DNA of 60,788 nt from contig JAKAUM010000012.1 of assembly GCA_021827685.1 (NCBI GenBank), positions 1 to 60,788 of the forward strand, given 5' to 3'. The stretch's first letter is position 1. Each line of letters opens with the position of its first letter. This DNA is from a bacterium (lineage in GTDB: Bacteria; Patescibacteriota; Minisyncoccia; UBA6257; 2-01-FULL-56-20). The notes under the pieces are model-generated. The model saw only the letters and a program-made list of their open reading frames with translations, ran no database searches and had not been told where the DNA came from. A program made the translations under genes and the position numbers. This document shows positions 3,662-15,211 of this stretch, piece after piece.

Positions 3662-4123
3662 TCATACCGCGCAGAGCAGCTTGGGCAATTCGACGCGGAG
3701 CTTGGCTATCGCATCCTCGTGCGAATCAAATGTAATAATTTTCACGACGGAGGGATTTCCCCGAAGCAGCCGCGATATCTTGCGAGCTTCGAGCTTTCTT
3801 TGCTCGCAAAGAATTATCACGGGGATGCCACTCCGGTTTGCCATCTCCACCTCGATGCCGCCACCCCAGGAAGGAGCTTCGGCGACAACGACGAGGAGCG
3901 ACGTGCGTTCGCATACCTGCTCACGCTCGGCCGCATCCACCTCGGGAGCGGTGTAGTGCCCGTGCTTTACTGGGTCATAATGTTCGTGCGGCACGAACGC
4001 CCGCACTCCGGTTTCGGCCTCAAACAGATCCGCGATTGCGACATAAAATGCCTTGATCGCGGCCTGTTCTTCTGGCGTCAGTTCGGTCAGTGGGCCGCAT
4101 ACATATGCGGAGTTTCCATTCAT
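3662..4123 (-). CDS. nucleoside 2-deoxyribosyltransferase-like (Rossmann-like) protein
   Basis: The ORF track extends to 4195. I place the start at the internal ATG at 4123 because a GGAGG lies 6 nt upstream. Motifs: N-terminal YVCGPL and C-terminal LLVVVAEAPSWGGGIEVEMANRSGIPVIIL, the PSxGxxxExG pattern of the NDT-like superfamily. Confidence 0.5.
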   Translation of the reverse strand: MNGNSAYVCGPLTELTPEEQAAIKAFYVAIADLFEAETGVRAFVPHEHYDPVKHGHYTAPEVDAAEREQVCERTSLLVVVAEAPSWGGGIEVEMANRSGIPVIILCEQRKLEARKISRLLRGNPSVVKIITFDSHEDAIAKLRVELPKLLCAV

Positions 4124-4445
4124 CCAACACCTCCGATTCATTGGCATTGATGCTGCTTGGCTGAATAGATTTAAACAGAAAGAGCATGTGGTCAAGGAAG
4201 CATAAATCGATCGCCTTTAACAACCACTATTCGATTATCGTGATGAGTCCCAGCAACAGCTATTTTAAAGACGCGATAGGGAGGATTACCGCTTCGCCCG
4301 CCGGAACACTCCGGTCTGTGGCGGACTTTGGGACGCTGTTTTGCGCCCGTATTCCATGCATCGATTTTTATCGCGCATGAATCGCGCAGAAAATCGCGCA
4401 GTGGTTCTGACCGGCTCGTAGGGCACACAGCGGACCTTAGGATAA

Positions 4446-4787
4446 CTATTTCACTTTTCGGGTCAACTGTAAGGTTTTCTTGATAAATTCGTTATGTTCT
4501 TCCGAATATTTCTCCCGGTCTTCTGGATATTTTTTCGCCGGCTCCTTCTTCGGGCTTGAGCATGCCTTCGTGTGCGCTGGATGAGCGTTCAGAGGTTTTC
4601 CATGTTCGCCATGAACGGGTCTTCCCGCTATCGGGAAAATAAAGCTCCCTGCCAGCGATGACTTGCGCCACCCATACACCTTTCGGAGTATGACGGTCCC
4701 CGATGCTCTGACGAGGGGCTTTATACCGGGAACAGAATATTGCGCCATGCCAGCGAGTTGCCTTGCTAGTTTAGGCGTCTTATTCAC
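4446..4787 (-). CDS. hypothetical basic protein
   Basis: 113 aa with a GTG start and a Lys-rich C-terminus. No recognisable domain, so the coding status is uncertain. Confidence 0.35.
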   Translation of the reverse strand: MNKTPKLARQLAGMAQYSVPGIKPLVRASGTVILRKVYGWRKSSLAGSFIFPIAGRPVHGEHGKPLNAHPAHTKACSSPKKEPAKKYPEDREKYSEEHNEFIKKTLQLTRKVK

Positions 4788-4810
4788 TTGTTATATTAAT
4801 TTTATGACGA

Positions 4811-4835
4811 GAAAAGCGCGCCTGTCTAGCGCGCT
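4811..4835 (-). terminator. rho-independent terminator closing the AAA/vWA/paralog gene string
   Basis: Stem agcgcgc(4815-4821)/gcgcgct(4829-4835). On the minus strand it is followed by TTTTCTCGTC. It lies 58 nt after the stop at 4893. Confidence 0.65.
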
Positions 4836-4892
4836 CTGATTTCGAATTCACATATTTTATATAAAAATTTTCGGAACCAAATTCCAAAGTAT

Positions 4893-5774
4893 CTATTCAC
4901 GAGAGAAAAGGACCTGAGGGCGGAACCCCAAGCCGGCGCTCCGCCCGTCGGGATCATCCCAGCGGACGATCGAGAGACCACCGTCCCCCGAGCTGCCACC
5001 ATCGAGGCGCCCCTGGCCCTTCATATAAGAATCTTCGAACCACTCCCATGTGTTTGCTCCGCCCCACTTGGGATAATATACGTTTCCCATGTAGTTCCAT
5101 TCAATCGCACGCGGAAGCCGCAGCGATTCGGGCGGGACATCCAACGCCTCCGCAATGGCTTTCTTCACCTCCGGCTTATTCAACTCGTCCCATGAAATGT
5201 TATAGCGGGAATCCTTAACTTTGAAATCGGTGATGACTTTCTTTTTTCTCAAATCTTCCAGCGTCTCGGCCAGTATATCATCGGCGTATTTTTGCTTGCC
5301 GTCCTGGTATTGCGGCTTCTCGCGGGTATCGACAAGAATCCAAGCGGCGGGAAGCTTGAGAGTTTCCTTTGGAAGATTGCCATTCTTCACTTCATCAAAA
5401 AATTCGATGCCCCATTTTTTATCCGGAGTGTATCGCGTGCCCGGCTTTTTCTTCCACCCGGGCAGATCGCGCCCTTCGTCAAGTTCTTCGTCCGGCAGGT
5501 AATGAAGTTCAAGCCCCATCTCTTTCCATTTCTCGTAGCGCTCGGGCGTAATTTCTTCCGGGAGTTCCGGAACCTCAATGTCGTATCCGAAAAAATTGCG
5601 GAGTGATTCTGCTTCCCGATCGAGGAGCTCGCGGAACTCCATCGTTTCCGCACGCATTCTACCGCGCTCTTTTTCCGCTTCGCCTAAAACCCTCTCCACC
5701 TTCTTTTGAACAGAGGTTTTATACTGGTCGGGGTTATATCCCTCGTATATTTTGTAACCGGGGAAGCGCTCCAT
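4893..5774 (-). CDS. variable-tail paralog P1: cytoplasmic protein with a C-terminal CLec/FGE-like putative DGR variable region
   Basis: 293 aa with an ATG start. It shares the N-terminus MERFPGYKIYE..YNPDQYKTSVQKKVE and the C-terminal frame PRAIEWNY.GN..P.WG....EWFEDS ... LGFRPQV.F.RE with P2 and P3. No signal peptide or TM segment. Confidence 0.85.
   Translation of the reverse strand: MERFPGYKIYEGYNPDQYKTSVQKKVERVLGEAEKERGRMRAETMEFRELLDREAESLRNFFGYDIEVPELPEEITPERYEKWKEMGLELHYLPDEELDEGRDLPGWKKKPGTRYTPDKKWGIEFFDEVKNGNLPKETLKLPAAWILVDTREKPQYQDGKQKYADDILAETLEDLRKKKVITDFKVKDSRYNISWDELNKPEVKKAIAEALDVPPESLRLPRAIEWNYMGNVYYPKWGGANTWEWFEDSYMKGQGRLDGGSSGDGGLSIVRWDDPDGRSAGLGFRPQVLFSRE
4932..5027 (-). 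repeat. hypervariable block (putative DGR VR) of P1
   Basis: Encodes YMKGQGRLDGGSSGDGGLSIVRWDDPDGRSAG. Aligns codon-for-codon with 5888..5983 and 9098..9193; see findings. Confidence 0.7.
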
Positions 5775-5848
5775 ATAAGTTATTTATTTTTGATTATCAT
5801 AAATTTTTCGAACCCGCCAAAGAAACAAAAGACCGATTACCAAAGCAC

Positions 5849-6700
5849 CTATTCACGAGAGAAAACAACCTGAGGGCGGAACCCCAAGTCGCCGAGCCGC
5901 GCGCCGGGATCACCCCAGCCGACGCTCGAGAGACCACCGATCCCCGAGTAGCCAACAGCGAGGCGCCTCTGGCCCTCCCCTAAAGAATCCTCAAACCACT
6001 CCCACGTATCGGTGTCGCCCCATGAAGGGTGGTAGGCGTTGCCGAGATAATTCCACTCGATGGCGCGGGGAAGGCGGAGATATTTTTCTGGAACATCAAG
6101 GGCTTCCGCGATCGCTTTCTTTACTTCCGGTTTGTGCAGTTCATCCCATGAAATTCTGAAACGGGAGCCTTCGACTTCAAAAGCTCCGATGACTTTTTTC
6201 TTTCTCAGTTCTTCAAGCGTTTTAGCAAGTACGTCGTCTTGGTACATTTGCTCGGCGTGTTGATATTTCGGTTTTTCTCTTGTATCCGCGAGGATCCACG
6301 CACCGGGTAAAGTCGCCGCATCGGCATCAACTTTTTTATCTTTAATATTCTCATAAAACAAATCGCGGGGTTTCTTCTTCCAGCCGGGCAGTTCGCGGTC
6401 TTTTTTCATTTCCTCCGCCGGCAAGTAATGGAGTTCGAAACCCATCTCTTTCCATTTCTCGTAGCGCTCCATCGTAATCTCTGCGGGGAGCGGCGGCACT
6501 TCAACGTCGTACCCGAAAAAGTTGCGGAGCGATTCTGCTTCGCGACCCCGAAGCTCGCGGAACTCCATGGTTTCGGGACCCATTCTGCCGCGCTCTTTTT
6601 GCGCTTCGCCTAAAACTCTCTCCACCTTCTTTTGGACGGAAGTCTTATACTGGTCGGGGTTATACTCCTCGTAGATTTTGTAACCGGGGAAGCGCTCCAT
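5849..6700 (-). CDS. variable-tail paralog P2
   Basis: 283 aa with an ATG start placed 2 nt after the vWA stop. Near-identical to P3 outside the tail; for example, a roughly 95-nt stretch around 6037-6133 appears identical to 9247-9343. Confidence 0.85.
   Translation of the reverse strand: MERFPGYKIYEEYNPDQYKTSVQKKVERVLGEAQKERGRMGPETMEFRELRGREAESLRNFFGYDVEVPPLPAEITMERYEKWKEMGFELHYLPAEEMKKDRELPGWKKKPRDLFYENIKDKKVDADAATLPGAWILADTREKPKYQHAEQMYQDDVLAKTLEELRKKKVIGAFEVEGSRFRISWDELHKPEVKKAIAEALDVPEKYLRLPRAIEWNYLGNAYHPSWGDTDTWEWFEDSLGEGQRRLAVGYSGIGGLSSVGWGDPGARLGDLGFRPQVVFSRE
5888..5983 (-). repeat. hypervariable block (putative DGR VR) of P2
   Basis: Encodes LGEGQRRLAVGYSGIGGLSSVGWGDPGARLGD. Confidence 0.7.
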
Positions 6701-6702
6701 GG

Positions 6703-8730
6703 TTATAGATCTCTTGTGTATTGAAGAATAACTTTTTGGACGGCTTGCGGCAATTTATTGATGTCCACGATGACTTCCGCATCCGGTTTATACGTTTCCT
6801 GAACAGCGGCCCCGGATTCCGTCATGCCCAAGCCTAAAATAATCACGCCCTTCTCGCGCAGCGCTTTGAGGTTCTTCTGGACGCGTTCGGCGTTTTCGCT
6901 GTCGCCGTCCGAGAGTACTACGATCACTTTGCGCCGTATCTTTTCCCTAAGCTGCCGCTCATCTTCCGGTGTCAGGGATTTTAACGCTTCTTCGAGCGAG
7001 AGATAATCCGGCGTTCCGCCACCCGCCTTGTGCATTTTCTTCCAAATCGCGATGCGGTCTTTTTCCGAAAGATCCGGCGAGAGTTTTTTGAGTTCCACAT
7101 CGCCGAAATCGCCGAACGCTCTCGTTTCGGTTCTCACGCCTAAACCCACAGGCATGCCGCTCTCGTATTCTGCTTCCTCGATTTCTTTCTGAAAGTCCGC
7201 GAGCGATTCCAAGAAAAGAAGTTTGCTTTTTCTATCCATTTCGAGCTTCCCGCCCTCGTTCATGGAGCCGGAAAGGTCATTGATCAGAGTCATATCAAGC
7301 GCGCCATATCCCTCTTCTTCCCGCTGCTTGCGCTCCACATCTCGAAATGCTCTCGGCTCACCGCCGCTTTTGGACTCGATATACGCTTCCGCGACCGTTC
7401 CACCCTCTATTTCCTCTCCTTCTCGCTGGAGCTGCGGGCGAACTTTCCAGCGCCGCTGTAATCTCTTCGTCACTACTTGCTTGAACACTTCGCGAAGTTC
7501 GGCAATGAGCGGGGCAATTTCTTTATATTCGTTTCGATATCCAATCACGTCTTCGGGGCTTACGTCGTGCTCCCTTGCCCATTGCTCAAGGATGCTCTGA
7601 TCGAGAGTGGGCACTCCGCCGCGCTCTTTCACAATCGTCTCGATCGCTTTCATGATTTTTTCTTCGTCTTTGGCCGACAAGGGCTCGGGGTGCGTCGCCT
7701 CATATGTTTTATATTGCTCCTTGAATCGCTTCTCGGCCTCGCGCCGGGCGCCGCCATCGCCGCGCTTCTCTTTTTTCGTGTCTCCTCCGCCTTCTTCTCC
7801 CTTTCCATTGCCGCCCTCGGCCTCTTTTTTCTTTTTAAACTTCTCCCACCACTTTTTGTCTTTTTTTTCGCCGCCCTGCTCGCCCTGCCCACCCTGCCCT
7901 CCTTCCTGTTCGCGACTTTCGTTCGACTGGCCTTGACCCTGATCCCCTTTGCCTTTTTGTTTCTGCGTTTCGCGCTCCATGTCTTTGCGGTAAAGTTCCA
8001 TATAAACCGGCTCGACAACCTGGCGCATCAACTTGAACCGGTCGCGCGGCTCAATTGTGGGCGTCGTTACAAGATCTAAAATATCTGTTCTGTCGTCGCC
8101 GAAATTGCGAAGCTTATCGAGGGCTTCCTGTGCTTCGGGACCCACCGTAACTTGTTCATCCGGAACCATCATCTGGCGGATAAAGCCGTACACGAACTGA
8201 ACGTGGGCAGACAATTCCTGTTCTTGGCCAGTTTGCGGATCCTTGAGGCGCCGGTAATCGGTCGCCGGAAACATTTTCTCTTTATATAAAGTGCGGCGCG
8301 TTTCCTCCAGAAATGGAAGTTCAGCGACAATGCGCCGATTCCCAAGCACGTCTTCAAAGATATTGTGGAGAATATGGAGCTGCGGTTTTTGCTGGCTATA
8401 TCGTTTCGCTTCCTTAAGTACAAATTCCGGATCTCTCAAAAGTTCCCCGTAGTGAGCCATAAGCTCGTGCGTCGTCGCAAAGAGCGTTTCCTTAAGATCG
8501 TAACCGCGCTCAATGAAAAAATTGGGATCGTAAACAAGTCGCCGGTTCTCGAAGTCGAACGCCCAACCGTTGCTCCCCCTTTCGAGCGTAATGTCCCCGC
8601 GCATCCCGTATGCGCCGAGGATCTCGCCTTCCTTGTCGAAAAACGCTTCAACTTCGGACGGCTGCGACTCCTTCTTTTCAATGGGATTCTCGTCTCCCTC
8701 GGGCGGTTTTTCAGGAGAGAATTTAGTCAA
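6703..8730 (-). CDS. vWA-domain protein with an N-terminal HExxH (metallopeptidase-like) region and a central K/E/G-rich low-complexity linker
   Basis: 675 aa. HELMAH motif near residue 90. C-terminal vWA domain with the MIDAS motif DLSGSM. The track start at 8730 is a TTG overlapping the stop of the RT remnant, so the true start is uncertain. Confidence 0.8.
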   Translation of the reverse strand: MTKFSPEKPPEGDENPIEKKESQPSEVEAFFDKEGEILGAYGMRGDITLERGSNGWAFDFENRRLVYDPNFFIERGYDLKETLFATTHELMAHYGELLRDPEFVLKEAKRYSQQKPQLHILHNIFEDVLGNRRIVAELPFLEETRRTLYKEKMFPATDYRRLKDPQTGQEQELSAHVQFVYGFIRQMMVPDEQVTVGPEAQEALDKLRNFGDDRTDILDLVTTPTIEPRDRFKLMRQVVEPVYMELYRKDMERETQKQKGKGDQGQGQSNESREQEGGQGGQGEQGGEKKDKKWWEKFKKKKEAEGGNGKGEEGGGDTKKEKRGDGGARREAEKRFKEQYKTYEATHPEPLSAKDEEKIMKAIETIVKERGGVPTLDQSILEQWAREHDVSPEDVIGYRNEYKEIAPLIAELREVFKQVVTKRLQRRWKVRPQLQREGEEIEGGTVAEAYIESKSGGEPRAFRDVERKQREEEGYGALDMTLINDLSGSMNEGGKLEMDRKSKLLFLESLADFQKEIEEAEYESGMPVGLGVRTETRAFGDFGDVELKKLSPDLSEKDRIAIWKKMHKAGGGTPDYLSLEEALKSLTPEDERQLREKIRRKVIVVLSDGDSENAERVQKNLKALREKGVIILGLGMTESGAAVQETYKPDAEVIVDINKLPQAVQKVILQYTRDL

Positions 8731-9053
8731 GTTATTGCGTTTATTATACCGCTTATAGGCCGAAAAATCAAATGATTTTCTTTACCATTTCCCATCGCAC
8801 GGTGCGCGATTTTAAGATCGGCGTTGAGAAATTCGCCGACTTTCCCTATATAGCTCGACAGGAGTTCTCGATCTCTGTCTAAAATTACGAAGTCGTCGCA
8901 GTAGCGCATGTAATACTTCGCGCGCAGAGTCATTTTTATGAATTGATCGGGTTCGTTCAGATAGATATTCGCGAAGAGCTGGCTCGTGAGGTTGCCGAGC
9001 GGCAGTCCCTGTATGTCAACATCCCTTTTGTGAGACAAGAGCCAAAATCCCAA
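8727..9053 (-). pseudogene. internal remnant of a DGR-type reverse transcriptase (motifs 4-5 only)
   Basis: Translation QGLPLGNLTSQLFANIYLNEPDQFIKMTLRAKYYMRYCDDFVILDRDRELL. It carries the LGxxxSQ motif-4 signature of DGR RTs and a YxDD catalytic box (YCDD). N-terminal fingers motifs 1-3 and the thumb are absent. The apparent start is a TTG 5 nt after the P3 stop. Confidence 0.75.
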
Positions 9054-9058
9054 AGCAC

Positions 9059-9910
9059 CTATTCACGAGGGAAAACAACCTGAGGGCGGAACCCCAAGGC
9101 GTCGTTCCGTCCGACGGGATTACCCCAGTAGACGTTCGAGAGACCACCGCTCCCCGAGTGGCCACCATCAAGGCGCCTCCGGCCATTCATGTAAGAATCC
9201 TCGAACCATTCCAATGAATTCGTCTCGCCCCATGAAGGGTGGTGGGCGTTGCCGAGATAATTCCACTCGATGGCGCGGGGAAGGCGGAGATATTTTTCTG
9301 GAACATCAAGGGCTTCCGCGATCGCTTTCTTTACTTCCGGTTCGTGCAGTTCATCCCATGCGATCCCGAAGCGGGAGCATTTGACTTCAAAAGCTCCGAT
9401 GGCTTTTTTCTTTCTCAATTCTTCAAGCGTTTTAGCAAGTACGTCCTCTTTATACGCCTGCTTGCCGTCTTCGTAATGCGGTTTGTCCCTGCCGTCTACA
9501 AGTATCCATGCCGCAGGCAGCGTTGCTGCATCAGCGGCGACTTCTTTTGCTTCCAATATTTCATAAAACCAGTCCCGCGGCTTCTTCTTCCAGCCGGGCA
9601 GTTCGCGGTCTTTTTTCATTTCTTCCGCCGGCAGGTAGTGGAGTTCGAGCCCCATTTCTTTCCATTTCTCGTAGCGTTCTGCCGTAATTTCTTCCGGGAG
9701 CTCCGGAATCTCAATGTCGTATCCGAAAAAGTTGCGGAGTGATTCTGCTTCCCGATCTATCAGCTCCCGGAATTCCAATAATTCCGGATTGATGAGCCCT
9801 TTTTCTTTCTGCGCTTCCCCAAGCGCCTTTTCTACCTTCTTTTGAACAGAGGTCTTGTATTGGTCGGGGTTGTACTCTTCGTATATTTTGTAACCGGGGA
9901 AGCGCTCCAT
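9059..9910 (-). CDS. variable-tail paralog P3
   Basis: 283 aa with an ATG start 12 nt after the AAA ATPase stop. Same family as P1 and P2. Confidence 0.85.
   Translation of the reverse strand: MERFPGYKIYEEYNPDQYKTSVQKKVEKALGEAQKEKGLINPELLEFRELIDREAESLRNFFGYDIEIPELPEEITAERYEKWKEMGLELHYLPAEEMKKDRELPGWKKKPRDWFYEILEAKEVAADAATLPAAWILVDGRDKPHYEDGKQAYKEDVLAKTLEELRKKKAIGAFEVKCSRFGIAWDELHEPEVKKAIAEALDVPEKYLRLPRAIEWNYLGNAHHPSWGETNSLEWFEDSYMNGRRRLDGGHSGSGGLSNVYWGNPVGRNDALGFRPQVVFPRE
9098..9193 (-). repeat. hypervariable block (putative DGR VR) of P3
   Basis: Encodes YMNGRRRLDGGHSGSGGLSNVYWGNPVGRNDA. This copy is the richest in AAC/AAT codons. Confidence 0.7.
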
Positions 9911-9922
9911 AACATAATGGGA

Positions 9923-11599
9923 CTATTCTTTGCCCTGCCAGGCGCGCAGCGTCTTCGCCGCAAGTCCGGGTACTTTGAAGTCTTCGGGCTTAGTGTCCTT
10001 GAAGAATTTATTGGCCATAAAGACGCGGATCATATTTTCCCTGTCTTTGCTCGCCCGGCCGCTGATTTCGGCTTTATGGAAAAACTCGCGAAGCACGACG
10101 TCCCCGAGCTGCTCTTTAAATCCGCCGGCTTTCCACGCTTTCATGATTTCGATCTGGTCCTTCAGGGTAACCACAAGCTCCTTGAATGCCAGGCGGTCGC
10201 TTTTCGCCAAACTTTCTTCCGCGCCTTCGCGCACGGAAAGCGTGAAGTCTTCCTGTATCTTGCGGCAGGCGGCGGCAAATCGCTTCAGTTCATCCACCTT
10301 CCCGGCCGCCCCTGTTTCGCTCCACTGGATATTGCCGTGCCGGTCGGCGAGAACGGCGGTCAAAATTCGGAGCGTTTCCGGAGCGATATATTGCCCTTCT
10401 TTATTTTTCTTCCCGAGATCCAAATAGTGAATTTCGCGGGCTCCCGCGCCTCCGATGAAGCGGCGGAGCGTCGCTACATCGAGTTCATAGCGCTGCTTGT
10501 ACCGCTCCGATTTCAAGTTAGCCGTTGCCATAATCGGTGCGCGGATCGGGATTTCCTCGCCGGTTACGGGATGCTTCCAAACATCGCCGACCCGCTTTTG
10601 CAAAAGGTCGTGCAAAATTCCCGCGAACTCGTGGGGCATAAGATTCACTTCATCTAAAATCACGGGGCGCCCTTCTTTTTGCGCTTTCACGAATTCGGAA
10701 TAGTCAAAAACCGTCTCACCGCCTTTGAGTCCTCGGGTGCCCAAGATCTGCGATTCTTTGATCTGTTCCTGTATGGAAATGAGCGCCGGCGCTTTTCTCA
10801 AATATCTCTCCGAAATATATTTCGCAAGCTGCGATTTCCCCGAGCCGGTTTCGCCCTGGAAAAGAACCGGGGCGCCCTGAAGCAGATCCGGCAGTATGGC
10901 GCGGATGAGTTCCGTGCGCGATTCCGTTTCGGCAAAACTGTATTGCTCCAAATCGCGCTGCATCTTGCGGATGCCGCGCCGCTCGAGCATATCGATTGTG
11001 TCCGGATCAAGCTCGAAGTTTTTTATCGTTTCCTGAAGTTCGCCCTTGCGGGTTGCGAGGTCGGCCATTTTCTTCCGCTCGATGGGCCCCGGCGCCCGCC
11101 CCACTTTCTCGTAAACCATCTGAAGCTTTTTCTCTGCCGAGGTTATCGCGTCAAGTTCTTTTTCGGCATGTTCATACTGCAAAGATTTCGTAAGCGTTTG
11201 TTTCTTTTTCTCGAATTGCTCCTTATAAGTTCGTAAAACTTCCGGATTGCTCGCCAACTCTTTGATGCGGGCATCGTATTCCGTAAGCGTCGTTTCTTGA
11301 AATTCCGCGAGTTCCGGATCGAGTGAAAGCGCCTCGAGATGCGCCGCGACTTCGTTTTCTCCTTTGGCCTTCAAATCTGCGAGCTCCGTTTTGCTTTTCA
11401 CACCCCATGCTTCGTTCACGTGCTTCGCGACTTCGGCGCGGGAAGCCGAAAGCTCCGCGAGCTCATTTACGCGAGATTCCAATTCCTCGCGTGAAAGTGG
11501 TTTCTCTTTTTTAGATGGCTTTTCCACGCTCTCCCGCTCAAGAATCACTTCGGGGGTGGTTTTTACTTCGGGAATATGCGGCAACTTTTCTGGAGACAT
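9923..11599 (-). CDS. MoxR/AAA_5-like P-loop ATPase with a long coiled-coil N-terminal region
   Basis: Walker A is GETGSGKS and Walker B is VILDEVN, followed by an ATANL sensor-like segment. The track ORF starts at a TTG (11662); the first ATG is at 11599 (MSPEKLPH...). Confidence 0.8.
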   Translation of the reverse strand: MSPEKLPHIPEVKTTPEVILERESVEKPSKKEKPLSREELESRVNELAELSASRAEVAKHVNEAWGVKSKTELADLKAKGENEVAAHLEALSLDPELAEFQETTLTEYDARIKELASNPEVLRTYKEQFEKKKQTLTKSLQYEHAEKELDAITSAEKKLQMVYEKVGRAPGPIERKKMADLATRKGELQETIKNFELDPDTIDMLERRGIRKMQRDLEQYSFAETESRTELIRAILPDLLQGAPVLFQGETGSGKSQLAKYISERYLRKAPALISIQEQIKESQILGTRGLKGGETVFDYSEFVKAQKEGRPVILDEVNLMPHEFAGILHDLLQKRVGDVWKHPVTGEEIPIRAPIMATANLKSERYKQRYELDVATLRRFIGGAGAREIHYLDLGKKNKEGQYIAPETLRILTAVLADRHGNIQWSETGAAGKVDELKRFAAACRKIQEDFTLSVREGAEESLAKSDRLAFKELVVTLKDQIEIMKAWKAGGFKEQLGDVVLREFFHKAEISGRASKDRENMIRVFMANKFFKDTKPEDFKVPGLAAKTLRAWQGKE

Positions 11600-11753
11600 A
11601 TTATTGAAATTATAATAGCAAAACAAGCATTTCTCAAAATTCCGTCGAGCTATGTATTCCAATAATACTACAGATGCTCTAATAAGTCAACCTTTTCGCA
11701 CTGGTTCCCCACCAGGGCGGCCTTATCCGACTTATAGCTCCCTCGCGCCCTTC

Positions 11754-12047
11754 TTATCGCATCCCTTTGAATACGATGCCAGTTGTTCTTTGCAAAAGTT
11801 CCAATGTCGCCCGCACGGATGGGTTGCTGGTGTGCCGTAATTGGACTCTATCGCCGTAGGTTTTCCCGAGCGGCGTCAGAAATTCGTCGCCCCATGAAGG
11901 TGAAAAGGTCAAAACGTCCTCGAAGTCGATCTCGAGATTCTCATCCTCTTTGATGTCGCGCAATGTCGGCTGGAATGCCGCGAACGATTCGCGTCCGGCT
12001 TGGCGGGAAATGAGGGTCGTCCCGAATTTTTTGAGTTCGATGGTCAT
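11754..12047 (-). CDS. STAS-like small protein (DUF4325-like)
   Basis: 97 aa with an ATG start. The pattern ISRQAGRE...LEIDFEDVLTFSPSWGDEFL matches the DUF4325/STAS-like architecture. The gene starts 5 nt after the GHKL gene stop. Confidence 0.55.
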   Translation of the reverse strand: MTIELKKFGTTLISRQAGRESFAAFQPTLRDIKEDENLEIDFEDVLTFSPSWGDEFLTPLGKTYGDRVQLRHTSNPSVRATLELLQRTTGIVFKGMR

Positions 12048-12052
12048 GGATT

Positions 12053-12775
12053 TTAATATGATATGAGGACAAGGCAGCCGCGTAGGTTCTCTTTGCTTTT
12101 CGCCACAATGAAATCGGTATCCCTGCCTTTCATGGTAAGTGCTGCGTCGCCGCTTTGGAAGGAGATGTTAATGTTATTTTCAGAAACGACCTCCTTCACG
12201 TACTTCAGTCCGTTGCCCCGCCCCTCGGGAGCGCGGCCGGAGATGACTTCCGTAAACGCGACCTTCAGGGCATCTTCGTAGTTATTCAGCGCCGGTCTCA
12301 CCCGCTTCAATGTTTCGAGGACGCCGATACCTCTATCGGCCAACACAATCTGCTTTTTCACAAGATCGTACGCGAAGAATATCCCCGGCGTATCCGGCCA
12401 CAATCCGAGATTATGGTCGAATGAGTTGTTCCCTATTTCCCCCGCGACTGACACGAGCAGCGAGAAGAGATCAGGTACCGTGCCGCCGCGAATCATGTCG
12501 TCCTGCATCCTGATGAGCCGCGCCTGGAAAACGGCGCTCGTCTGACAATAGAAACCCTGCGGGAATTCCGCATTGCCCGCGATCCAATCGTGGGCAAGCC
12601 TGAAAAGGTTCTGCGAGAAAATCTCGACATCCTTTCTCCGGTAATAACGGTCTCCTCCTTCCCGTTTCCGGATGGCAGGAAAACGTCCGCTCTCATCCCA
12701 ACGGCGCAACGTCATTATGGAGACGCCCATCAGCTCGGCGGCTTCTCCTATTGGAACCAGATCTTTGTCGTCCAT
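12053..12775 (-). CDS. MerR-type HTH fused to a GHKL (HATPase_c-like) ATPase/kinase domain
   Basis: MerR HTH: IGEAAELMGVSIMTLRRWDESGRFPAIRKREGGDRYYRRKDV. GHKL boxes: N-box EIGNNSFDHN, G1 DRGIG, G2 GRGNGLKY. The track start at 12826 is a TTG; the first ATG is at 12775. Confidence 0.7.
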   Translation of the reverse strand: MDDKDLVPIGEAAELMGVSIMTLRRWDESGRFPAIRKREGGDRYYRRKDVEIFSQNLFRLAHDWIAGNAEFPQGFYCQTSAVFQARLIRMQDDMIRGGTVPDLFSLLVSVAGEIGNNSFDHNLGLWPDTPGIFFAYDLVKKQIVLADRGIGVLETLKRVRPALNNYEDALKVAFTEVISGRAPEGRGNGLKYVKEVVSENNINISFQSGDAALTMKGRDTDFIVAKSKENLRGCLVLISY

Positions 12776-12816
12776 AGCTTTGTTAGCTTCAAGAGCTATT
12801 TTATCATACTTTTTAT

Positions 12817-12884
12817 ATCTATACAAACTTCCCTATATCTATACATCTACCATAAATCTCTATATTTTCCTCTTAATCTATACA
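12817..12884 (-). promoter_or_regulatory. periodic direct repeats upstream of the MerR-GHKL gene (putative operator array)
   Basis: Plus-strand atctataca at 12817, 12837 and 12876, plus a degenerate atctctata at 12856. This gives a period of about 20 nt. The minus-strand motif is TGTATAGAT. Confidence 0.4.
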
Positions 12885-13271
12885 TTGCTTTCCTCCAAAA
12901 TCAGGGCGCCACCCCCCCCTACCCCTACCTACCCTAAATATCCCCATTTTCTCTGATTTCCACTGCCTTTCCGGCGTCTGGGGGCGGACATGTCCGGTTT
13001 TGCGCGAGCCGATCGCCCACTGGCATGCATACGCGGTACACGCTCGGCGTGAAAATCGACAGCCTGCTCGTCGAAACCATCGCACAGATATAAGAAGCGA
13101 ATCGTGCGAGTAAGGGCACGAAGCTGCCGCATCTTGAGCGCGCCGCTCATTATCTCGACCTCGCGAAACTCTTCCTCGAGATGCTCTAGGAGATCAAAGC
13201 GCTGGATAGCGGGAAATATATCTCCCTTTCCGAAAAACTCTTTGAAGCGGGCAGGTAGGCCAGCGGTTGGG

Positions 13272-13385
13272 CGCGGCCGGCTCGTTGTCGTTCCAGTCGT
13301 TGTCGAGCCAGTTATAGTTCCAGTTCCACCTGTTGCCGTTCCAGTACGGGTACTCGACATACAGGTTACCGTTCGCGTTGCGGAA
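13272..13385 (-). repeat. DGR template repeat (TR), 114 nt
   Basis: The minus-strand sequence would read FRNANGNLYVEYPYWNGNRWNWNYNWLDNDWNDNEPAA and contains 11 AAC codons. It is 85/114 identical to 13750..13863. Similarity ends at the ttccgc (5') and ccggccgcg (3') boundaries. Confidence 0.8.
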
Positions 13386-13639
13386 TCGTGCGCCGTGCCA
13401 TCCGCGCCACCATCCGTTGATTACTCTCGGGATTGAATCGTGTTCGGGATGCCCCCAGCACCGCGCACCAAGTATCTTCGTTTTTATTTCGGTTGAAAGA
13501 ACGGCGCTGGCAGAAAGCGTACCCGCTGCCATTCCGCGTTCAGTGATACCGGAATGCGGCCGCCGAAACCGCAGCCTCGGACTTGTTTTGAGCCTTATTC
13601 CGAAATCGTTTTTCACGTCTTATTTTTGTAGATAATAGA

Positions 13640-13680
13640 TAAAAGAAGGCCCGTGCAGAACCGAAGTTCGCGCACGGGCC
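13640..13680 (-). terminator. hairpin/rho-independent terminator downstream of the VR
   Basis: Stem ggcccgtgc(13648-13656)/gcacgggcc(13672-13680). On the minus strand it is followed by TTCTTTTAT. It lies about 70 nt 3' of the VR end. Confidence 0.7.
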
Positions 13681-13734
13681 GAAGAGCAAAGGGGCAGAGG
13701 ATCAGAAAGGTCCAGCTGCCCCATATCCAAAGGA

Positions 13735-14415
13735 CTAACTTGCGAGCGACGCGGCCGGGCTCTGAACGCGCCAGTCGTAGCCGAGCCAGCGGCAGTCCCA
13801 GCGCCACCTGTCGCCGTCCCGGAACAGGTACCCGACATACAGGCTGCTGTTCGCGCCGCGGAAGATGGTTCCCCAGAAATAGGTGTAACCATTCTTCCAC
13901 TCATTAGGAATGAGCTTCGGGTTGGCGAGCAGGGCATCCATGATGCAGGCGTTCAGCACCTGCACGTCCCTCAGCTCCTTGCAGAGCTTGTGGCCCTGGA
14001 TGTAGTTGCCATCCCGCTGCTTTTTTGAGAGGTAACGGACGACTTCCTTGCCGTTCGCATAGAGCTTGCCGTCGTCACGCTTTACGAGGGTGATCGCGCC
14101 CATCGGGCGATGCTCAGTTCCGTCGCCCGTCAGGTAGAGGCCGGATGGGATTTTGGGATTTGCGTCGCAGTCCACGATGATCGACATCGGAAGCGGGGCG
14201 GGCTGCGGTTTCCCGATAACGGGAACCACTGCGGCTGGCGTCTCGAACTTACGTCCTTCGACCACCTGCTGCAGTTCATCCATCACCCAGTCGTATTCGA
14301 GCGTGCCTTCGTTGATCCGGCGCTTCAATTCGTCGGTGCGACGAGTCATCTTTCCGAGCTGCTCATCGTCCATCTTGGTTCCGTCGAGGACAGCGCTTGC
14401 CGTCGTATTCGTCAT
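13735..14415 (-). CDS. DGR target protein (cytoplasmic, no signal peptide) with the VR at its C-terminus
   Basis: 226 aa with an ATG start preceded by AAGGAG. The C-terminal 38 codons form the VR. Confidence 0.85.
   Translation of the reverse strand: MTNTTASAVLDGTKMDDEQLGKMTRRTDELKRRINEGTLEYDWVMDELQQVVEGRKFETPAAVVPVIGKPQPAPLPMSIIVDCDANPKIPSGLYLTGDGTEHRPMGAITLVKRDDGKLYANGKEVVRYLSKKQRDGNYIQGHKLCKELRDVQVLNACIMDALLANPKLIPNEWKNGYTYFWGTIFRGANSSLYVGYLFRDGDRWRWDCRWLGYDWRVQSPAASLAS
13750..13863 (-). repeat. DGR variable repeat (VR), 114 nt
   Basis: Encodes FRGANSSLYVGYLFRDGDRWRWDCRWLGYDWRVQSPAA. There are 29 mismatches to the TR, and 20 of them fall at TR adenines. Confidence 0.8.
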
Positions 14416-14545
14416 GACAGTTTCTCCTTTTTCTGCCGCATAGTTGCAGCTTTGAACGTACCATCACATATGCGCTCAAAGCTGCAACGAAGCGGAAATC
14501 CCTTGGAATATATGGCTTTTCAAAGAGCATTGAGTTACGATTTAT

Positions 14546-14573
14546 ATTATATCATAACTATAATCCTTGTCGA
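14546..14573 (-). promoter_or_regulatory. sigma70-like promoter of the DGR target gene
   Basis: Minus strand: TCGACA, a 16-nt spacer, then TATAAT (-10 at 14546-14551, -35 at 14568-14573). Confidence 0.5.
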
Positions 14574-14665
14574 GACAGCCGTTTCGAGCCTTTTTAGTAT
14601 AGAATTTGCACTCTTGCCACCGCTATCTTCCAGGTTCGTAGGCGACCTCCGCGCAAAACGCTCGT

Positions 14666-15211
14666 CTAGCGCTTCGCCCACTGCGGCGCGCGGCGCGCTT
14701 TTTTAAGTCCGTATTTTTTGCGCTCCACCATCCGGGAATCGCGGGTGAGGTAGCCCGTCGCCCGGAGGCGCGGCTTCCAATCCGGCGTATGCCGGACGAT
14801 CGCGCGGGAAATGCCGTGGCGGATGGCTCCGGCCTGGGCCGAAATGCCGCCGCCGCGGACAGTGACGGTCACGTCAAAATCCTTCAGAAGGTTCATCTCG
14901 CGGAGAGGCGCGACTGCCGCGGCGAGGAGGCGCGGGAGGAAGAAATAATGCTTCGGCTCTTTTCCGTTCACGAGCATCTTGCCGCTGCCCGCAAAAAGGC
15001 GGACGCGCGCGACCGCGGTCTTGCGGCGGCCGACCGCTTCCGTATAGCGGCCCTTGGGCGCGGGCGGCGCGGCGTGGGCGGCGTGGGCGGCGTGCGCAAC
15101 GTGCGGCGCGGCGTGGGCGCTCGAGGCGGCGCGGGTATCGCGCGCCTGGGCGCGGGCGCCATGCGCCGGTGCGGACTTCCCTGCTTTTTCCGTCATTTTG
15201 CGTTCGGCCAT
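14666..15211 (-). CDS. rpsI: 30S ribosomal protein S9 with a roughly 50-aa Ala/His-rich N-terminal extension
   Basis: C-terminal 130 aa: GRRKTAVARVRL...GGGISAQAGAIRHGISRAI...LTRDSRMVERKKYGLKKARRAPQWAKR. The start lies 1 nt after the rplM stop. Confidence 0.95.
   Translation of the reverse strand: MAERKMTEKAGKSAPAHGARAQARDTRAASSAHAAPHVAHAAHAAHAAPPAPKGRYTEAVGRRKTAVARVRLFAGSGKMLVNGKEPKHYFFLPRLLAAAVAPLREMNLLKDFDVTVTVRGGGISAQAGAIRHGISRAIVRHTPDWKPRLRATGYLTRDSRMVERKKYGLKKARRAPQWAKR

Follow-up and report, generated by a model that had tools for sequence, protein, structure and literature searches.

Three paralogous genes with variable tails beside the probable remains of a diversity-generating retroelement on a Patescibacteriota contig

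The contig JAKAUM010000012.1 of a bacterium of the Patescibacteriota (assembly GCA_021827685.1), analysed here over 60,788 nucleotides and hereafter called the window, carries three paralogous genes whose 3' ends have the appearance of variable regions (VRs) of a diversity-generating retroelement (DGR). The features of the P cassette and of the second relic given below lie on the minus strand. The genes P1 (4893-5774), P2 (5849-6700) and P3 (9059-9910) are intact open reading frames (ORFs) of 293, 283 and 283 amino acids, respectively, and appear to encode DGR variable proteins. P1 is a stand-alone variable protein, and the protein closest to it, at 84% identity, is Pb of a related 332-kb contig, L001. 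The VRs, delimited by homology to the template repeats (TRs) of relatives, lie at 4915-5020 in P1 (106 nt), 5871-5976 in P2 and 9081-9186 in P3; the VR of P1 ends 3' in the GC-rich invariant TTGGGGTTCCGCCCTCAG, located where an initiation of mutagenic homing (IMH) sequence is expected. Directly upstream of P3 is a gene for a MoxR-like AAA_5 ATPase (9923-11599; Pfam match E=1e-16), 90% identical over its full length to its counterpart in L001. A remnant of a DGR reverse transcriptase (RT) gene at 8808-9011 is followed downstream by a gene for a 675-residue VWA-domain protein (6703-8730), a conserved member of the cassette that is 84% identical to the L001 protein over its full length. The latter scored 26.0 bits against VWA_CoxE, just under the cutoff of 26.4, and 24.2 bits against VWA (cutoff 23.8). 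A metallopeptidase motif in its N-terminal half was considered and rejected, as HELMAH in the window and HEFEH in the relative L006 are not a conserved HExxH and no Pfam match was found.

A sequence-only reading of the window had described P1, P2 and P3 as paralogues with a common N-terminus and a common tail framework, differing within the tail mainly at codon positions 1 and 2 and lacking adenine in the codons that do not vary. A codon alignment of the three intact ORFs bears this description out. Within the 38 codons from YMKGQGRL to LGFRPQ, codon positions 1, 2 and 3 had 8, 15 and 4 variable sites, respectively, compared with 63, 42 and 146 in the 239 aligned codons upstream (positions 1 and 2 against position 3, odds ratio 8, P=2e-5 in Fisher's test). 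More telling than this excess is the near-lack of synonymous divergence: third positions varied in 10.5% of the tail codons (4/38) and in 61% of those upstream (146/239; P=2.5e-9). Adenine occupied 4 of the 87 invariant columns of the tail, compared with 148 of 466 upstream, and the terminal CAG was the single exception among otherwise adenine-free invariant codons. Just upstream of the VR, P2 and P3 are identical over 98 nt (6035-6132 and 9245-9342; about 95 nt had been estimated), while the two genes are elsewhere about 82% identical, which points to a recent, apparently DGR-independent gene conversion between the paralogues. The 3' flank that had been noted as shared is TAGGTGCTTTGG in both P2 and P3; P1 has TAGATACTTTGG.

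The family to which these genes belong was found together with complete DGR machinery in other genomes. P3 has 43 homologues, and the few that carry names are from Patescibacteria. Among 39 homologues the tail framework RL.GG.S..GGLS.V.W..P..R...LGFR is almost invariant, and the positions between its residues are random even at 79% protein identity. A profile search of the family gave 723 cluster representatives at 50% identity, with the domain C-terminal in all of them. On L001 the genes are ordered as AAA_5 ATPase, Pa, Pb, TR (12057-12167), Avd (on the opposite strand), an RT of 293 amino acids, VWA and Pc. The same cassette, with AAA_5, P genes, TR, Avd, RT, VWA and a further P gene, is present in L001/L005, L004 (Paceibacteria), L006 (Kaiserbacteria GW2011_GWA2_52_12) and L008, the last being a contig that stops directly after avd; L003 has it interrupted by insertion sequence (IS) elements. 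The Avd of L001 matches the NCBIfam equivalog DivGenRetAVD (NF033474) with 89 bits against a cutoff of 80, and its RT matches RVT_1 and carries LGNLTSQ. The TRs of the intact cassettes are AAC-rich. Over 13 VRs of five loci (L001, L003, L004, L006 and L008), 167 of the 183 mismatches between TR and VR (91%) fell on TR adenines, although adenine makes up only 20-25% of these TRs. Where proteins of relatives with live cassettes were at least 90% identical, 39% of their VR residues differed, compared with 5-7% upstream. Since RT, Avd and an adenine-specific TR/VR pair occur together in the relatives, the P family qualifies on each defining point as a family of DGR targets.

The tails in the window can be compared with these templates directly. 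Within the 106 nt homologous to TRs there are 22 variable columns, and 15-16 of them coincide with adenines of the relatives' TRs, compared with 6-10 of the 84 invariant columns (five TRs; P between 1e-9 and 5e-8). The VRs of P1, P2 and P3 share the same non-adenine differences from the TR of every relative. Together with the homogenised synonymous sites, this means that the template last copied into them was a TR of this lineage's own, and the DGR was therefore active here after the split from the L001 and L004 lineages. The pattern reconstructed for the cognate TR is AAGGCCAGAGGCGCC...AACTCGGGGAACGGTGGTCTCTCGAACGTCAACTGGGATAATCCC, and the reconstructed template is AAGGCCAGAGGCGCCTAGATGATGGCAACTCGGGGAACGGTGGTCTCTCGAACGTCAACTGGGATAATCCCGACGAACGGAACGACGACTTGGGGTTCCGCCCTCA. 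These comparisons show that the tails are DGR variable regions, produced by adenine mutagenesis and homogenisation from a TR that has since been lost. The DGR origin proposed in the sequence-only reading thus receives support from the relatives' cassettes, from the coincidence with TR adenines and, as described below, from the predicted fold.

The machinery itself was removed from the window by deletion. An ORF at 8727-9053 begins six bases past the stop codon of P3 and reads ...GLPLGNLTSQLFANIYL...YCDDFVIL..., in which motifs 4 and 5 of a DGR-type RT can be recognised. The ORF as such is spurious, with the RT remnant sitting within it, and it matches RVT_1 only weakly (E=3e-4) and only over profile positions 117-178. 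By tblastn the remnant corresponds to residues 151-218 of the 293 of the L001 RT (68 codons) with 81% identity; it retains LPLGNLTSQ (motif 4) and YCDD (motif 5), and motifs 1-3 and the thumb are absent. No intact DGR RT, defined by motifs 1-7 with [ILV]GxxxSQ in motif 4, was found in the window, and a tblastn search of the window with the L001 Avd gave no match. The remnant had gone unnoticed in the sequence-only reading, as had the second TR/VR pair described below.

At the DNA level the window is collinear with L004 in three segments: 9104-9032 corresponds to the 3' end of a P gene with its flank, 9008-8809 to the middle of the RT gene (L004 1991-2190), and 8810-8651 to the 3' end of the RT gene and the 5' end of the VWA gene (L004 2377-2536). 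This collinearity indicates two deletions, one of about 1.26 kb covering the TR, avd and RT codons 1-150, and one of about 0.19 kb within the RT gene. At the first junction (9009-9031), 23 nt stand in place of the approximately 1.26 kb present in L004 and L001; at the second (8800-8810), the window lacks about 190 bp of the RT gene, codons ~220-283. The last ~10 RT codons survive as DNA, but the C-terminus of the ORF is no longer like the end of the relatives' RT. Both junctions lie in unique sequence and neither has an IS element. The 23-nt filler at 9009-9031 includes TCTCACAAAA, which matches the 3' flank of the relatives' TR (ATCGTATCTCACAAAAAG in L001, L004 and L003). It may be a scrap of that flank, in which case the loss would have taken place in more than one step.

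The earlier failure to find a matching template held when an adenine-tolerant scan of both strands of the window returned only the three VRs; the next-best sites had at least 24 non-adenine mismatches per 100 nt. No cognate TR was present in the 10 kb beyond the left end of the window, which also contained no RT, nor in L025 or L026, two contigs of the same locus introduced below. The lineage-specific VR/TR core CTCGGGGNNCGGTGGTCTCTCGNNCGTCNNCTGG had no match in the JGI metagenome contigs, and no closer relative with a TR was found there. The TR cannot be found in the window because it was deleted along with avd and most of the RT gene. The element itself is dead here, and the DGR signature is very probably historical rather than current. 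The cassette seems to decay by other routes in other genomes. In L003 (10900-15200) an IS200-type transposase interrupts a P gene, and avd is parted by an IS30-like element from the RT gene, for which the annotation there gives an ORF of only 165 residues; in L002 (9627-10849) a lone P gene follows a C-terminal fragment of the VWA gene, beside cytochrome oxidase genes, which is odd for a candidate phyla radiation (CPR) genome.

Two independent assemblies contain the same locus. L025, a 34-kb contig from sample ERZ27237454, is 99.95% identical to window positions 4039-14686 without gaps (10,648 nt), and L026, from sample ERZ27237336, is 99.97% identical to positions 3712-7454, also without gaps. 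They reproduce the deletion junctions base for base, and thus the deletions are not assembly errors. The VRs are the same in the three consensus assemblies, which come from different samples, apart from one single-nucleotide polymorphism (SNP). The sequence-only reading had named the lack of a TR in the genome together with a lack of variation in the population as grounds on which to abandon a DGR explanation. The findings come close to that combination, and they speak against present activity while leaving the DGR origin standing.

The same island carries what appears to be a second relic, here called DGR-B (13029-14415). Its target gene (13735-14415) encodes a protein of 226 amino acids with 81 homologues; its VR (13750-13863) forms the 3' end of this gene, and a 114-nt repeat links it to a TR at 13272-13385 that is AAC-rich and translates as FRNANGNLYVEYPYWNGNRWNWNYNWLDNDWNDN. 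TR and VR of DGR-B differ at 20 adenine and 9 non-adenine positions. In L023 a 72%-identical homologue of the target is followed by a TR and an RT of 337 amino acids, and there the mismatches fall on adenines in 14 of 14 cases. Collinearity between the window and L023 extends across the TR and the spacer to about 13029, at which point L023 enters the RT gene and the window has no RT. The nine non-adenine mismatches of DGR-B are consistent with drift after loss of its RT, and the island would then hold two dead DGRs side by side. The DGR-B TR was also considered as the template of the P tails and was ruled out, the sequences being unrelated.

The two relics are separated by two genes at 11754-12826 which have no counterpart in the relatives' cassettes and may be a separate inserted module. 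One (12053-12826) encodes a protein with a MerR-type helix-turn-helix that matches the PADLOC model mad1 (E=4e-14), and the other (11754-12047) a DUF4325/STAS-like protein. Neither tRNA gene adjoins the island, and a look-up of the last large ORF of the window, as right-hand context, gave no record. The GC content rises from about 0.52 to about 0.62 at 14.7 kb and drops back near 53.5 kb. Homology to L025 ends exactly at 14686, in the last ~21 nt of rpsI, where L025 runs on into different genes; this break would mark either a rearrangement or island boundary, or else a chimera in one of the assemblies.

The C-type lectin (CLec)- or formylglycine-generating enzyme (FGE)-like tail suggested from the sequence is supported at the level of the predicted fold. 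An AlphaFold2 model of P3, based on a 39-sequence alignment, had a mean pLDDT of 89.6 and a pTM of 0.82, with the FGE/CLec-like fold predicted at residues ~45-283. Among the 50 Foldseek matches listed from the PDB nearly all had the FGE/C-type-lectin fold, including CarF, PvdO, TvpA, FGE, EgtB/SenA and Mtd (1yu2); TvpA (2y3c) was matched with a probability of 0.90 and a TM of ~0.36. These models support an FGE/C-type-lectin-like fold for the P proteins. No match to P was found among Pfam (including FGE-sulfatase), NCBIfam or PADLOC models. The P proteins have no signal peptide or transmembrane segment, a TAT-signal Pfam match being present in one homologue only; for this reason they probably are cytoplasmic and would act in the cytoplasm.

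Taken together, we consider P1, P2 and P3 to be the variable proteins of a DGR typical of the CPR, whose machinery has since been deleted and whose tails are frozen, with a probability of roughly 85%. In the intact element, TR RNA would have been reverse-transcribed by an error-prone RT with the help of Avd, TR adenines being copied as any base, and the resulting cDNA would have replaced the last ~106 nt of each P gene. About 15 codons would thereby have been randomised, with the non-adenine positions kept identical among the paralogues. After the DGR had run in this lineage, two deletions stripped it of the TR, of avd and of the RT gene save for 68 codons, and the three tails would now be frozen, one sampled specificity each, in genes that are still intact.

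Several observations weigh against this interpretation or limit it. The Foldseek scores are modest (best E=3e-3, TM 0.36-0.42), and P has no sequence-level match to Pfam or the PDB, the best hit of a profile search being CarF with E=0.95. The description of the tails as frozen draws on three consensus assemblies, and the examined ~71 kb belong to a contig of at least 343 kb and to an incomplete genome, in which a second cassette with a cognate TR is possible elsewhere. The only SNP in the VRs, at window position 4969 in P1, changes ATC in one assembly to AGC in the other (window compared with L025; Ile to Ser), the two differing by five SNPs in all over 10.6 kb. The VR SNP falls on a formerly adenine-templated site, for which the chance is about 4%, and could hint at residual activity or selection. 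Finally, the functional partnership of the AAA_5 and VWA proteins with P is one that we infer from the gene order and gene fusions.

In a different account, diversification of the P tails continues, and they serve as remote targets for an intact DGR, with RT and cognate TR, elsewhere in the genome. Remote targets of DGRs are documented (PMC8144416), the VRs retain an intact IMH-like 3' end, the one SNP falls on a variable site, and most of the genome lies outside the ~71 kb examined. However, the slot of the cassette's own RT holds a gutted gene, no TR was present in the 71 kb, and the VRs are the same in three assemblies save one base, whereas active relatives differ at ~39% of VR residues. 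DGR-B is likewise without an RT and has nine non-adenine mismatches, which counts against any active DGR RT in the genome; an RT serving another TR would not serve the P genes anyway. Continued remote diversification is therefore improbable in our judgement, though it is the strongest of the competing explanations.

Much less probable still is that the missing TR, avd and RT are an artefact, collapse or chimera of assembly between the repeated P tails. Three ~80%-identical paralogues and repeated VR/TR segments can mislead assemblers, and the sharp GC jump at 14686 may mark a chimeric join, but the deletion junctions lie in unique sequence outside the repeats and recur base for base in two independent assemblies, gapless over 10,648 nt. 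The least credible account dispenses with a retroelement altogether and attributes the tails to ordinary diversifying selection acting on a binding loop in duplicated genes, the framework being kept identical by gene conversion. The 98-nt identity of P2 and P3 does show that gene conversion operates in these genes. Nevertheless, selection would neither place the variable sites at the adenines of five relatives' TRs nor deplete adenine in the invariant columns, and it would leave without explanation an RT remnant with DGR motifs a few bases past P3. The TRs of the orthologous cassettes, with 91% adenine-specific mismatches, effectively refute it. The deletion of a formerly active DGR thus remains our preferred interpretation.

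As to function, the genes for the MoxR-clade AAA+ ATPase and the vWA protein share one operon, with synteny kept in L001, L003, L004 and L006. In 9 of 10 long family members scanned, AAA_5 is fused to the P domain; such fusions (P0165, P0166, P0170, P0172, P0176 and others) are 800-1157 residues long, and some have two P-domain matches. By the logic of gene fusion, AAA_5 and P would also work together where, as in the window, their genes are separate. Because of the conserved synteny and the AAA_5-P fusions, it is most likely that the P proteins serve the neighbouring MoxR-like AAA_5 ATPase and VWA protein as ligand sensors or adaptors. A more specific proposal, which we put forward tentatively and hold to be rather less likely than its opposite, is that AAA_5, VWA and the lectin-fold P proteins of the CPR form a cytoplasmic sensing or conflict system of the MoxR-vWA type, the ligand-binding modules of which are normally rewritten by a DGR. 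If this were true, the lineage studied here would offer a natural example in which such a system lost its diversifier and became hard-wired. Its three specificities, retained as intact genes, would presumably recognise something worth keeping, and MoxR-vWA-DGR systems would extend beyond multicellular bacteria.

The known mechanism of DGRs is unchanged by these findings. They do offer an explanation for an orphan DGR signature without a template: what remains is a datable relic after deletion of the template, of avd and of most of the RT. Such loci can serve as controls for DGR finders, since RT-anchored tools will miss them, and they show what VRs look like once hypermutation has stopped. The synteny of AAA_5, CLec, DGR and VWA genes and the AAA_5-P fusions link the DGR targets of the CPR to MoxR-type ATPase machinery, and this link suggests, as a concrete hypothesis, what the variable proteins of the CPR may do.

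Several known systems resemble the locus in part. Mtd of the Bordetella phage BPP-1 and TvpA of Treponema denticola likewise have a C-terminal VR in a CLec/FGE-type fold, adenine-specific change at codon positions 1 and 2 of AAC-type codons and a GC-rich invariant 3' end. Unlike these, the P proteins have no secretion signal or phage context; sequence similarity to Mtd and TvpA is not detectable and structural similarity is modest (TM ~0.36 to TvpA). Degraded DGR loci are also known, in which RT genes were truncated by transposons or elements resembling miniature inverted-repeat transposable elements (MITE-like; PMC10907252). As in those loci, the machinery is gone and the target genes survive, and the L003 cassette broken by IS elements is a further example; the loss in the window differs in that it came about by two clean deletions, and neither junction has an IS element.

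The MoxR-vWA ternary conflict systems (Kaur et al. 2020, PMC7159879; Dore et al. 2024, PMC10907252) resemble the cassette in that a MoxR-clade AAA_5 ATPase is encoded together with a VWA protein and an FGE-like domain diversified by a DGR in a conserved operon, in which RT and Avd are embedded. There the vWA protein usually carries the CLec domain as a fusion, a third VMAP/effector component (peptidase, TIR) is present, and the hosts are multicellular (PMC7159879, PMC10907252), whereas the CLec proteins here stand alone and the host belongs to the CPR. Searches of the cassette genes against Pfam, NCBIfam and PADLOC, which do not include the specific VMAP profiles of that work, gave no VMAP, iSTAND, FtsH, beta-propeller or effector domain, and for lack of a VMAP/effector domain the locus is not filed as a member of the MoxR-vWA ternary conflict systems.

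The closest likeness is to the DGR targets of the CPR, in which, according to Paul et al. 2017 as summarised in PMC10907252, a CLec domain is commonly paired with an AAA ATPase. DGRs are enriched in the CPR, where their targets have no recognisable domains and the RTs include a CPR-restricted clade 2 (Roux et al. 2021, PMC8144416). The P proteins come from the same phylum and have neither a Pfam domain nor a signal peptide; AAA_5 is fused to the P domain or, as in the window, encoded directly upstream; several targets share one TR; and transposons are common around the locus. The window differs from these targets in that separate genes encode its ATPase and its lectin-fold protein and in that the diversifying machinery has been deleted. 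The locus is thus a decayed member of the known CPR class of AAA-ATPase-linked DGR targets, rather than an active or a new system.

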